In this document: piece by piece, positions 5,824 through 9,104 of the stretch
How the letters are laid out: every line of letters begins with the position of its first letter
Numbering within the stretch: the first letter of the stretch is position 1
NCBI GenBank assembly: GCA_964618415.1
Contig: CAZUAT010000006.1
Location: 1,025 to 65,024, forward strand
Origin: an uncultured Thermoanaerobaculia bacterium
GTDB lineage: Bacteria; Acidobacteriota; Thermoanaerobaculia; Multivoradales; JAGPDF01
Direction: 5' to 3'
Length of the DNA: 64,000 nt
Program-made: the position numbers and the translations under genes
The notes under the pieces: generated by a model
What the model was told of the DNA's origin: nothing
Seen by the model: the letters and a program-made list of their open reading frames with translations, nothing else
Database searches by the model: none

Positions 5824-7307
5824 TCGCCGAGTCCCAGCACTCTGCGCCCCAGATCGACGGGCAGCTCGCGTCCGGTCATGGCGCGGAACTGTGGGATCGC
5901 CTGGGCGAGCAGAACCTCCCGGCCGTCGATCGCCGTCAGGCCGCGGCGCCGCGCCGCCGCCACGAGAGCGGTCGGGGCCTCGCCATAGACCAGATCGACG
6001 ACGACGGCATCCGGGCGCAGGCGGTCGACCGGAAACGGAAGCTCGTCGGGCACTGCGTGTCCGAGCGGCGTGGCGTTGACCAGCAGATCGGGCACACCAG
6101 GGTCGAAGTCGACAGTCAGGACGAACGGCAGCGAGAGGGTGCGCGCCGCGGCCAGACCGCGCTCGCTGCCGCGATGGACGAACTCCACCGTTGCGCCGGC
6201 CTGCGCCAGGCCGAGCGCCGCCGCCCGGCCCGCCCCGCCGCAGCCGAACACCGCCGCGCGGCGCCCGCGCGGATCGATGCCGCGCGCCGCCAGCGCGCCG
6301 ACGACGCCTTCTGCGTCGGTCGACTCGCCCTCCCAGACGCCGTCGCGCCGGGTCAGCGTGTTGACCGCCTGCAGCCGGTTCGCGAGCGGACTGGTCGCGC
6401 CGGCGATCGCGAAGGCCACATCCTTGTGCGGCGTGGTCACCGACAGGCCTTCGAGCGGCAGCGCGAGAATGGACAGCGTCGCCGGTTCCACGACCTCGAG
6501 CCAGAACTCTCCGAACTGCGGCACCTCGAACGGCAGGTAGAGCGCCGGAATGCCGAGCGCCCGGTAGGCCGCGTTGTGCAGGCGCGGCGAGAGCGAGCCG
6601 AGCGCGCGTTCGCCCACGACACCGAACAGGCGCTCGACCGGCGGCAGCCCGGGCAGGCCGAAATCTCTCAGCAGCCGCTCGACGGTCGGCTGGCCCGGCG
6701 CCGCCGCGCGTCCGATGCCCGCGTAGACCACCGGAGCGCCGAGCCGCGGCGCGACCAGCCGCGTCCAGCTGCCGGTCGCCCCGCCGGCGAAAGCGATCAG
6801 ATCGTGGCGACCCAGGCTGTGCAGCAGTACCAGCGGCGCCAGCTCCTCACCCGACGCCTCGGCGGTCGGCACGATCTTGTACAGCCGGGCGGGCGTGCGC
6901 GACATGTGGTCGAACCGACCGCGCAGCGCCGCCAGATCGGCTGCCGGACCGTGCCAGCTGATGATCCGCTGCTCCGCCCGCACGGCGTCCAGCAGGCCGG
7001 GTTGCAGGTCGCGGTCGGCCTCCAGGTCGACGAGGTCGTAGCGCGGCGCCATCGCTTCGATCCGACGCCGGCGCGCCTCGCGCGGGCCGCCGGCCGCGCC
7101 TCCCTCGGCCCGACTGCGCAGGGTGTAGAGCCACCGGCCGGGAAAATGCGCGCGCAACGGCGCCGGATCGACGTCCCCGACGAGGTCGGCGCGGACTTCG
7201 ATCCAGTCCACCTGCCCCGCCAGCTCCACGAGCCGCGCCGGTTCGAGCGCCGATCGGTCGGCCGCCGTCGCCACGATCGTCGCCCGCGGCTCACCGCGAT
7301 CCGTCAC
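5820..7307 (-). CDS. aroDE: bifunctional 3-dehydroquinate dehydratase (type I) / shikimate 5-dehydrogenase
   Basis: ORF 5820..7319. The N-terminal half has type I DHQase features (IISWHG His, ARLYKIV Lys). The C-terminal half is AroE-like (SLSPRLHNAAY, VTTPHK, FGCGGAGRA). I prefer the GTG 7307 start because the SD GGGAGG lies 4 nt upstream; the ORF track uses TTG 7319. Confidence 0.88.
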   Translation of the reverse strand: MTDRGEPRATIVATAADRSALEPARLVELAGQVDWIEVRADLVGDVDPAPLRAHFPGRWLYTLRSRAEGGAAGGPREARRRRIEAMAPRYDLVDLEADRDLQPGLLDAVRAEQRIISWHGPAADLAALRGRFDHMSRTPARLYKIVPTAEASGEELAPLVLLHSLGRHDLIAFAGGATGSWTRLVAPRLGAPVVYAGIGRAAAPGQPTVERLLRDFGLPGLPPVERLFGVVGERALGSLSPRLHNAAYRALGIPALYLPFEVPQFGEFWLEVVEPATLSILALPLEGLSVTTPHKDVAFAIAGATSPLANRLQAVNTLTRRDGVWEGESTDAEGVVGALAARGIDPRGRRAAVFGCGGAGRAAALGLAQAGATVEFVHRGSERGLAAARTLSLPFVLTVDFDPGVPDLLVNATPLGHAVPDELPFPVDRLRPDAVVVDLVYGEAPTALVAAARRRGLTAIDGREVLLAQAIPQFRAMTGRELPVDLGRRVLGLGE

Positions 7308-7317
7308 CGTGCCTCCC

Positions 7318-7356
7318 AAAACGCAACAACCTCCTTCCGGTCATCCCGGAAGGAGG
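7318..7356 (-). terminator. intrinsic-terminator-like hairpin plus U tract; candidate trp attenuator
   Basis: The minus strand reads CCUCCUUCCGG-gauga-CCGGAAGGAGG, a perfect 11-bp stem with a 5-nt loop (7356-7330). It is followed by UUGUUGCGUUUU and lies 10-25 nt upstream of the aroDE SD and start. Confidence 0.6.
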
Positions 7357-7425
7357 TCGCTCTGGCGCTCCGCGCGCCGTTCGGTCTCGCCCCGGGTCGG
7401 CCGGGGTCGGGTCCGTCGCCCGGCC

Positions 7426-7503
7426 TCAGCCTGCGTGCATGTCGGTGCCGCACCACCAGCGGTGGCCGGACCGACGCGCGCCTGCCGAGACCGTCGACTC
7501 CAT
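7426..7503 (-). CDS. candidate trp leader peptide, MESTVSAGARRSGHRWWCGTDMHAG
   Basis: A 25-codon ORF runs from ATG 7503 to TGA 7426 and has adjacent TGG TGG codons at 7458-7453. It lies between a promoter-like element and the terminator hairpin, upstream of the trp operon. It is the tail of the spurious ORF 7426..8340 in the track. Confidence 0.55.
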   Translation of the reverse strand: MESTVSAGARRSGHRWWCGTDMHAG

Positions 7504-7513
7504 CGTGCGGCGG

Positions 7514-7542
7514 ATCTGACCAGAGCCCGCCGGGCCTGTCAA
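7514..7542 (-). promoter_or_regulatory. sigma70-like promoter candidate (TTGACA, 17 nt spacer, TCAGAT)
   Basis: On the minus strand the -35 TTGACA is at 7542-7537, followed by a 17-nt spacer and a -10 TCAGAT at 7519-7514. The leader ATG is only 10 nt downstream, so the leader mRNA would be nearly leaderless. The -10 element is weak. Confidence 0.3.
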
Positions 7543-7568
7543 GGCAGCGACCTGCGGGCCCGCACGCT

Positions 7569-9104
7569 CTATGGCGCCGTGGCGCTCCAGCCGGTGGTCG
7601 AGCCGTTGTTGAAGCCGTGGCGGAAGATCACGCTGGTACCGGGCTCGAATCCCAGGCAGGCCGGGAAACTCGCCGCGCGCGACACGACGTGCGAGACCAT
7701 CTGCGCCGGCACCCGATCGGGCGCCACGCCGTACGGGTGCCCCTGCCCGAACGTGTAGCTGACATTGCCGGTGACTCCACCGCTCAGCAGGTGGCAGTAG
7801 GACATGACCGTGCCGTTGGCCTGACCGGGCGATCCTCCCGTCGTGCTGCCCAGCCCCGGAAGGGTCGCCGGCGCGCCGCCAGGGTTGCAGGCGCAGCCGC
7901 TCACGTTCCAGTTCTGGGTCCCCGCGTTGCAGCTGTCCCCGTTGCCCTGCTCGTTGACGTAGCAGCGGTCGACCTGGCTCGGATTGCCACCGTTGTTGGC
8001 ATAGCAGTGGGTGTGCCGCGACGAGAAGTTGTGGCCGATCTCGTGCGAGGTCGCCATCAGGTCCCACACCACGGTCGGATTCTCGTAGGTGAAGTTGCCG
8101 GTCATGTTGCCGGTATAGCCGTACGCGCCGCCGTAGTTGCCACTGCCGGTGAACGTACACCCGGAGCCGGTGGTGTTGTAGTTGAACGGTCCGCCGCACA
8201 GCACGCTGAGCCAGGCCACGCCGCCGCCCGACGACTTGCCGCTCATCATGTGGGCGATGGTGCGCGTCTGGCCCACCATGTTGTCGTTCCAGTGCTTGCC
8301 GAAGTCGAACAGGTTGCAGATCGAGCTGGTCTGGTTCCATGGGTCGGCGGCGCTCGTCCAGAGGCGCAGATAGGAGATCTGCAGCGACGTGCCGACCTCC
8401 TCCTCGTAAAGGAGCGACATGTAGGCCATCAGGTCGGCCACGTAGTTGACCGCATCCTCGGTGTCGCCGAACCGGCTGTAGAACTCGAAGTCGGAGTCGA
8501 TGGCCACCCGCGCGGTGTAGCCCGGCGGCGTCCCGCCGAGCGGAGCGGCCTCGGGCACGGCGGCCGCGCCGAAGTCGAGCGGATCACCGGGCTGGGCGAG
8601 ATCCGGCTGCTCGCAGCGGAACGACCGACCCTCTGGTCGGGCGACGTCGACGCGGCGCACCTGCGGCACGCCGTCGGCGCCGGGCAGGATCAGGCGGAAG
8701 CCGTGCCAGTCGGAGGCGATGCCGCGCACGGTCCCGTCCGCGAGCGCCGAAACGAGGACCCGGGAGCCGGGTACTCCCTCGAACACGCCGCTGAATCGCA
8801 CCGTTCCCGGTCGATCGAGAAGGCGCTCGGACTGACCGTCGTGAGCCACCAGGCGCGCGTCCTCGGTGAACACCTCGACGCGCGCACCGACGAACGTCTC
8901 GGCGCGCGCTGCGTCCGGATCGTGAATGCCCACGATCCGCACAGCGGCAGCGGGAGCGAGCGCGGGGGCAACCCTCGCGAGATCCGCGGCGGCAATCTCG
9001 CGCGGCGGCGACTGTGGTCCACCGTCCGAGGCGGCAGCAACGGCTCCGCCGGCGCAGGTCGCCACAATGGCGATACCGGCAATCCACTCGAATCGCTTGA
9101 TCAT
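7569..9104 (-). CDS. secreted zinc metalloprotease (metzincin, reprolysin-like)
   Basis: ORF of 511 aa with an N-terminal signal-like segment (IAGIAIVATCAGGAVAAA). It has the metzincin motif HEIGHNFSSRH and a Cys-rich C-terminal half. Confidence 0.85.
   Translation of the reverse strand: MIKRFEWIAGIAIVATCAGGAVAAASDGGPQSPPREIAAADLARVAPALAPAAAVRIVGIHDPDAARAETFVGARVEVFTEDARLVAHDGQSERLLDRPGTVRFSGVFEGVPGSRVLVSALADGTVRGIASDWHGFRLILPGADGVPQVRRVDVARPEGRSFRCEQPDLAQPGDPLDFGAAAVPEAAPLGGTPPGYTARVAIDSDFEFYSRFGDTEDAVNYVADLMAYMSLLYEEEVGTSLQISYLRLWTSAADPWNQTSSICNLFDFGKHWNDNMVGQTRTIAHMMSGKSSGGGVAWLSVLCGGPFNYNTTGSGCTFTGSGNYGGAYGYTGNMTGNFTYENPTVVWDLMATSHEIGHNFSSRHTHCYANNGGNPSQVDRCYVNEQGNGDSCNAGTQNWNVSGCACNPGGAPATLPGLGSTTGGSPGQANGTVMSYCHLLSGGVTGNVSYTFGQGHPYGVAPDRVPAQMVSHVVSRAASFPACLGFEPGTSVIFRHGFNNGSTTGWSATAP

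Follow-up and report, generated by a model that had tools for sequence, protein, structure and literature searches.

A candidate leader-peptide attenuator upstream of an aroDE-trp operon in Thermoanaerobaculia and its Trp- and His-codon relatives

The stretch of DNA analyzed here (64,000 nucleotides [nt], hereafter the window) comes from an uncultured bacterium of the class Thermoanaerobaculia (assembly GCA_964618415.1, contig CAZUAT010000006.1, positions 1,025 to 65,024), and our subject is the gap on its minus strand between a protease gene and a tryptophan biosynthesis operon, for which a tryptophan leader-peptide attenuator had been proposed. The protease open reading frame (ORF) runs from 9104 to 7569 and encodes, as its Pfam match confirms, a reprolysin-like (M12) metallopeptidase; this gene is syntenic in the closest relatives only (L002) and is unrelated to the element described below. 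The first gene of the operon, aroDE, starts with GTG at 7307 and, by its Pfam matches, is a fusion of a type I dehydroquinase (DHquinase_I) and a shikimate dehydrogenase. Downstream of it are TrpE, TrpG, IGPS (TrpC), and PRAI (TrpF), each with a Pfam match. The trpD position is taken by a 349-amino-acid ORF on which no Pfam match was run and whose counterpart 3′ of trpG was recovered by tblastn in related loci, and trpB, which continues past the left edge of the window, was identified by motifs. The operon content given in the original prediction, a shikimate-pathway fusion gene plus six trp genes, is thus borne out by Pfam, by tblastn at the trpD position, and by the trpB motifs. Neither hisZ nor hisG was found in the window.

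Within the gap, a promoter-like pair precedes a small ORF. The −35 box TTGACA (7537 to 7542; all features are on the minus strand) is followed after a 17-nt spacer by a −10-like box, TCAGAT (7514 to 7519), which lies 10 nt 5′ of the leader ATG and is replaced in relatives by TCTAAT, TCGAAT, TGGAAT, or TGTAAT at the same place. The leader ORF (7426 to 7503) starts at ATG 7503, comprises 25 codons and a TGA stop (7428 to 7426), and encodes MESTVSAGARRSGHRWWCGTDMHAG. Its tandem Trp codons, UGG UGG (7453 to 7458), are the proposed stall site and lie 24 to 27 nt, or 8 to 9 codons, upstream of the stop codon. Since the leader frame is open for 304 codons backwards (7426 to 8340), where it overlaps the protease gene out of frame, the leader ORF is defined solely by its ATG; the 304-codon frame itself is a spurious long ORF, an artifact of high-GC DNA. 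A simple consensus scan calls no promoter in the window, where the −10 box is without the A at position 2.

Between the leader and aroDE, we distinguish six segments, S1 to S6. S1 (GUCGGUCCGGCC, 7464 to 7475) lies inside the ORF and may pair with S2 when the ribosome is absent; its partner is GGCCGGGCGAC at 7425 to 7415. S2 (GGCCGGG, 7419 to 7425) begins 1 nt past the leader stop codon. S3 (CCCCGGCC, 7399 to 7406) has S2 and S4 as alternative partners and includes both CCCGGCC (7405 to 7399) and CCCCGG (7406 to 7401), and S4 (CCCGGGGCGAG, 7386 to 7396), which includes CCGGGG (7395 to 7390), can pair either with S3 as an anti-antiterminator or with S5 as an antiterminator. S5 (CCUCCUUCCGG, 7346 to 7356) and S6 (CCGGAAGGAGG, 7330 to 7340) are the 5′ and 3′ arms of the terminator, in the window a perfect 11-bp hairpin with the loop GAUGA, and positions 7355 to 7345 double as the 3′ strand of the antiterminator. 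The helices S2:S3, S3:S4, S4:S5, and S5:S6 are therefore successive and mutually exclusive. Past the hairpin lie an interrupted U-rich tract, UUGUUGCGUUUU (7318 to 7329), weaker than the family consensus UUUUCGUUUU, and a second Shine-Dalgarno sequence, GGGAGG (7317 to 7312), which together with the aroDE start occupies 7305 to 7317. The hairpin is present once in the window, and a second copy of the element was not found there. The original prediction had read these parts correctly, including the 25-codon ORF with two TGG codons at 7458 to 7453, the TTGACA-17 nt-TCAGAT pair at 7542 to 7514, three GC-rich pairings, the 11-bp hairpin at 7356 to 7330, the U-rich stretch, and GGGAGG.

To follow these parts in relatives, we fetched 80 genome loci and 80 metagenome loci with AroDE homologues of 54 to 75% identity, from metagenome-assembled genomes of the class Thermoanaerobaculia, phylum Acidobacteriota. 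The layout was found by anchoring on the stop codon of the small upstream ORF and then by a sequence profile search. Counting the window, the element profile has one match in each of 68 of 81 sources (67 of them among the 80 genome loci), and it also finds 49 of the 80 metagenome loci; with a profile E of 6e-11, the window diverges somewhat from the other members. These matches represent about 100 distinct sequences. Mostly, the element lies immediately upstream of aroDE, and in a few loci it lies directly before hisZ-hisG. Whereas 0 of 96 control stretches inside aroDE contain an exact TTGACA, 95 of 97 distinct relatives have one 5′ of the leader, and a TNNAAT-like −10 box follows 17 to 18 nt after it. 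The leader ORFs of the relatives have 23 to 30 codons. Of 103 distinct leaders, 102 have their stop codon 0 to 7 nt 5′ of the S2 core (the window has 1 nt there), and all three types of stop codon are used (UGA, 55; UAG, 44; UAA, 4). Beyond the stop, the family reads S2 GCCGGG, S3 GUCCCGGC, S4 CCCGGGACGAG, S5 CCUCCUUCCGG, and S6 CCGGAAGGAGG, then UUUUCGUUUU and the aroDE start, so that a terminator hairpin of 10 to 11 bp with its U-tract stands just 5′ of aroDE. Conservation in relatives, which the original prediction had named as its own check, thus extends to the small ORF, the Trp codon or codons, the stop position, and the helices in about 100 distinct sequences, and the hairpin shows compensatory changes. 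Judged by this conservation, the window features are more than a product of chance.

The same comparison bears on the reading of the hairpin as merely the terminator of the upstream metalloprotease gene. It does lie downstream of the protease stop on the same strand. However, it lies about 210 nt past that stop with a conserved promoter between, and whereas 67 of the 80 genome loci have the element, only 1 (L002) has a protease homologue upstream. Synteny and the intervening conserved promoter rule this explanation out, and we give it practically no weight.

The promoter spacing also bears on how the leader would be translated. In the window's clade, 8 to 10 nt separate the −10 box from the ATG and no Shine-Dalgarno sequence is present, which points to a leader that is probably leaderless or nearly so, with a predicted 5′ untranslated region (UTR) of about 0 to 3 nt. 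Two classes of loci can be told apart by how far the ATG lies from the −35 box: the distance is 31 to 34 nt in about 40 loci, including the window, which would give near-leaderless leaders, and 43 to 51 nt in about 48 loci, with a short UTR and a GGGA-type Shine-Dalgarno sequence.

Next, we consider the helices. Among 100 distinct sequences, pairing reaches 97.8% in the terminator S5:S6, where 6 pairs have changed on both sides, and 96.5% in S3:S4, which has 3 such pairs. Jointly, 97% of the cells are paired, with 9 two-sided changes, and none of 500 shuffles is as good. Run unguided, RNAalifold recovers exactly these two helices, and S2:S3 is 96% paired (57 sequences). The original prediction had listed three mutually exclusive pairings, and the second and third of them are the conserved S2:S3 and S3:S4, whereas the first, S1:S2, is only weakly supported. 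It had seen no clear antiterminator that competes with the terminator. Folding supplied a candidate, the S4:S5 helix, in which CCCGGGGCGAG (7396 to 7386) pairs with CUC/UUCCGGG (7355 to 7345) in the 5′ arm of the terminator. Its family form is CCCGGGA(C)GAG, or also CCCGGG(A/G)CGAG, with CUC(C)UUCCGGG, and 95% of its cells are paired. In the nascent window RNA, S4:S5 is the lowest-energy fold before S6 emerges. For isolated helices, the folding energies in the window are −17.4 kcal/mol for S2:S3, −11.9 for S3:S4, −27.8 for the S4:S5 domain, and −25.3 for the terminator, and the corresponding family medians are −13.1, −16.1, −22.8, and −20.7 kcal/mol. None of 200 shuffled sequences folds as well as the window region (z = −4.5), which taken alone is weak evidence in GC-rich sequence. 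An outer helix, UCCGUG:CACGGA, is merely 70% paired and was not relied upon.

In most loci, aroDE is followed by hisZ-hisG (Pfam PF13393 and PF01634), not by trpE as in the window. The leader codons track this difference. At least three His codons are present in the last 16 codons of 73 of 74 leaders linked to his genes (aroDE-hisZ-hisG or hisZ-hisG directly), typically with a tail ending in AWGWRAHHHSVS and the stop, compared with 1 of 22 leaders linked to trp genes (aroDE-trpE, as in the window; Fisher p = 6e-19, uncorrected for phylogeny). Of the 103 distinct leaders, 102 have one or more Trp codons among the final 16; all 22 trp-linked leaders belong here, and in these the terminator is kept too. 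Leaders that stand before aroDE alone (L081 and L082) have one Trp and zero His codons. On a neighbor-joining tree of AroDE, the cargo states interleave, with 14 separate all-trp clades, and parsimony requires at least 11 cargo switches and at least 12 changes of the His run. Loss of the His run can be followed in individual loci. In L015 (2850 to 2900), where trpE follows aroDE, a 1-nt deletion relative to sister loci shifts CAU CAU CAC out of frame, so that two Ile and one Ala codon (IIA) are read instead; CWRSSAHHHAH becomes CWRSSVIIACVR, and a new stop codon restores the geometry. Another lineage shows a decay series from HHH through HHR to PHR. Furthermore, the His codons vary synonymously (CAU, 181; CAC, 76). 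These patterns suggest that the leader is read as codons and that the codons, not the RNA alone, are under selection.

On this sequence evidence, the usual member of the family is a Trp+His leader in front of aroDE-hisZ-hisG, and the leader in the window is a Trp-only derivative ahead of aroDE-trp. The original reading as a Trp leader therefore stands for the window, with two corrections: the family is chiefly Trp+His, and most relatives have one Trp codon, not two. The aroDE-hisZ-hisG operon (for example, L042:2974-6293, and most of the loci L003 to L160) is the commonest arrangement in Thermoanaerobaculia and joins, under one Trp+His leader, the shikimate-pathway fusion enzyme to the first step of histidine synthesis. 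In a separate lineage (L043:4636-4751, also L038, L058, L063, L075, L096, and L113), the element lies 3′ of aroDE, directly before hisZ-hisG, with a longer leader (MMTANRTPNRAPLAILSIGEGVVASSAWAWRHHHHSSI) in which Trp codons are still present. Some aroDE-trpE loci without the element have other small ORFs with tandem Trp codons: in L121 and L147, an ORF ending in RCWWSYAQPYV lies about 130 to 140 nt upstream of aroDE, and in L057 and L079, an ORF with CWW(P/F)GD lies about 218 nt upstream. These may be a second type of Trp leader, either unrelated or highly diverged.

The conserved RNA could also be taken as a riboswitch or a protein-binding RNA, in which the CCCGGGACGAG and CCUCCUUCCGG blocks bind a metabolite, tRNA, or regulatory protein and the small ORF is incidental; conservation of S3 to S6 does exceed what base pairing requires. 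However, at E ≤ 10 the window region gives just three weak Rfam matches, to unrelated microRNA and small RNA families (best E = 0.8), and the his-type relative L042 gives none, a search that covers the T-box and all riboswitch families. Moreover, an RNA that is not translated leaves the synonymous His codons, the fixed stop position, and the frameshift that tracks the cargo unexplained. We consider this explanation very unlikely.

Several results weigh against a ribosome-driven, Trp-sensing switch. The antiterminator S4:S5 is built of near-invariant bases, with 2 pairs changed on both sides and 67 of 500 shuffles equal to it, and the four CCGGG-like segments pair trivially owing to their sequence alone. 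Only about half of the leaders have a Trp codon close to S2's best ORF partner (within about 6 nt), so S1:S2 stays weak. In the window, a stalled ribosome would still allow S2 to pair, behind it, with the 5′ part of the ORF. A simple terminator scan of the window calls nothing, the U-tract UUGUUGCGUUUU being interrupted; because the consensus scans were negative for both promoter and terminator, we place our reliance on conservation. When ribosome masks are applied in equilibrium folding, the terminator wins in every masked state, and in nascent RNA with the ribosome at the stop codon, S4:S5 still beats S3:S4 in energy. Constrained folding, as proposed with the original prediction, is therefore unable to show the switch by thermodynamics alone, and any switching must be kinetic; the same holds for the trp attenuator of E. 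coli. On the side of the codons, most relatives carry a single Trp codon, whether a leader is trp-linked or his-linked makes no difference to its number of Trp codons (p = 0.6), and leaders directly before hisZ-hisG still keep Trp. Because of these equal counts and this retention, part of the Trp conservation may reflect RNA pairing through S1 rather than sensing.

The latter points favor a different account, in which the element sensed His only and, after trp genes replaced hisZ-hisG, remains as a constitutive partial terminator or as an mRNA-stabilizing hairpin, its Trp codons being left over for pairing. In keeping with it, Trp counts are the same in both classes, Trp is retained before hisZ-hisG alone, and S2's best ORF partner often overlaps a Trp codon. 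Yet 22 distinct trp-linked sequences, from 14 separate clades, have kept the ORF with its stop position, the promoter, and every helix, and an attenuator without a sensor would always terminate ahead of an essential biosynthetic operon. Once the His codons are lost while terminator, promoter, and ORF are kept, the Trp codons are the remaining candidate stall site; otherwise termination would be constitutive. Many leaders carry two or three Trp codons (WW, WGW, or WGWW), more than pairing needs. The only leaders without any Trp, L088 and L089 (tail TLRGRVRVAVHHHPVI), are his-linked and have an intact RNA scaffold; this loss of Trp with retention of the RNA argues against a purely structural role of Trp. 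A relic of a His attenuator is therefore unlikely in our judgment.

The position of the aroDE ribosome-binding site raises another alternative, translational attenuation, in which S5:S6 hides that site rather than terminating transcription and the same leader-driven switch exposes it. In the his-type relatives, the sole aroDE Shine-Dalgarno sequence, GGAGG, is inside S6, the 3′ arm of the hairpin, and a UUG start lies about 8 nt later, so translation may be gated there too. The window also has an in-frame TTG at 7319, an alternative aroDE start 10 nt past the GGAGG of the hairpin. Against this, the window, L001, and L009 have the separate, second Shine-Dalgarno sequence GGGAGG 3′ of the hairpin and ahead of the called start, which points to termination as the operative mode, as does the U-tract that follows the hairpin family-wide. 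Translational gating as the sole mode thus seems improbable, and the two modes could act together in his-type loci.

Taken together, these results make it likely that the window element is a classical ribosome-sensed leader-peptide transcription attenuator for aroDE-trpEGDCFB. The layout of classical trp attenuation recognized in the original prediction finds support in the conserved ORF, promoter, and helices and in the match between codons and cargo. Transcription would start just 5′ of ATG 7503 from TTGACA-17 nt-TCAGAT, and a ribosome would translate the 25-codon leader while RNA polymerase transcribes the six-segment relay. When Trp is plentiful, the ribosome would reach the stop codon (7428 to 7426) and cover S2 (7425 to 7419), S3 would pair with S4, and the S5:S6 hairpin (at least 11 bp) with its U-rich tract would form and stop transcription before aroDE. 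When Trp is scarce, low charged tRNA-Trp would stall the ribosome on UGG UGG (7458 to 7453), so that the free S2 captures S3; the freed S4 would then pair with the 5′ arm of the terminator (7355 to 7345), the terminator would be blocked, and the polymerase would read through. In RNA that is not translated, S1:S2, S3:S4, and S5:S6 could all form, leading to termination. The geometry fits a choice made by ribosome position, with the stop codon adjoining S2 and the Trp codons 8 to 9 codons upstream of the stop; the ribosome footprint is taken as about 12 nt 3′ of the A site. What we observe in this scheme are the parts, how well they are conserved, and the agreement of the leader codons with the operon content; we infer the transcription start site, the geometry of the ribosome footprint, the kinetic order in which the RNA folds, and the effect of tRNA charging.

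A broader reading, to which we give slightly less than even weight, is that the scaffold is a rewirable two-input attenuator. Trp codons would report on the shikimate/tryptophan branch and His codons on hisZ-hisG, and the sensor would have been respecified by point mutation or frameshift as the cargo changed, by parsimony at least 11 times. Sensing would then need no more than one Trp codon and a leader ORF that is probably leaderless, and the window would be a Trp-only end state. The family as such would extend leader-peptide attenuation to an almost uncultured class of a major soil phylum, and it offers an unusually clean natural experiment in which one RNA scaffold keeps its form while its sensor codons change with operon content many independent times. 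The small ORF and the element could be annotated in hundreds of metagenome-assembled genomes, and Trp- and His-responsive operons would become predictable. The family also raises the question of whether a single Trp codon is enough to drive attenuation.

The textbook mechanism of leader-peptide attenuation is known mostly from Proteobacteria and Actinobacteria, and a few cases come from Firmicutes. The conserved leader family is apparently undescribed, the mechanism itself being classical; what it would add is the switching of codons for cargo on one RNA scaffold. The original prediction knew of no described trp attenuator in the acidobacterial group, and our literature search, which did not extend to subscription-only papers, likewise found no description of an acidobacterial or Thermoanaerobaculia leader-peptide attenuator. 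According to a 2010 survey (PMC2965389), the attenuators predicted in Acidobacteria were essentially unannotated and, apart from the survey's own Firmicutes his leader, no leader peptides were known at that time outside Proteobacteria and Actinobacteria.

Neither the window nor L042 gave a covariance-model match to the Rfam families Trp_leader (RF00513) and His_leader (RF00514) at E ≤ 10, and the T-box riboswitch (RF00230) had no Rfam match in the window region or in L042. By these searches, the element is an analogue of the Rfam Trp and His leaders, not a homologue. We also considered a Trp arrest peptide of the TnaC type (W-x3-D-x7-P-stop) and rejected it: the distance from Trp to the stop varies from 8 to 12 codons, there is no conserved Asp or Pro, and the regulation expected would be opposite.

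The enterobacterial his leader is a six-segment relay (A:B, C:D, and E:F versus B:C and D:E), with the same logic as S1 to S6. Like the his-type members of our family, this hisL attenuator (RF00514) has consecutive His codons ahead of the gene for ATP-phosphoribosyltransferase (Johnston et al. 1980, as summarized in PMC3896937). By the Rfam searches, there is no homology of sequence or structure between the two, and the family differs in having 3 to 4 His codons, not 7, plus 1 to 3 Trp codons, in having aroDE as its first gene, and in a window copy without a His run. In the E. coli thr (Thr and Ile) and ilvGMEDA (Leu, Val, and Ile) leaders, codons for more than one amino acid serve one branched pathway. 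The present family resembles them in combining codons for several amino acids in one leader, but it combines Trp and His, for a shikimate enzyme and the first step of His synthesis. The mycobacterial polycysteine attenuators, whose short ORFs are leaderless (bioRxiv 10.1101/834739), are similar in that a short regulatory ORF, starting at or next to the transcript's 5′ end, serves as the amino acid sensor of a downstream operon; they differ in phylum, amino acid, and RNA, and the leaderless status proposed here comes from the spacing of 8 to 10 nt between the −10 box and the ATG only. In E. coli trpL (RF00513) and the actinobacterial trp leaders (Corynebacterium and Streptomyces, as cited in PMC4833913), as in the window, tandem Trp codons stand near the end of a short ORF, a few codons ahead of the stop. 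As in trpL, the position of the ribosome would select between an antiterminator and an intrinsic terminator, in trpL ahead of trpE. By the Rfam search, the element is not homologous to trpL, however: it has six segments where trpL has four, most of its family members carry a single Trp codon, its leader is probably leaderless, and it would gate a shikimate-pathway fusion gene together with the trp genes.

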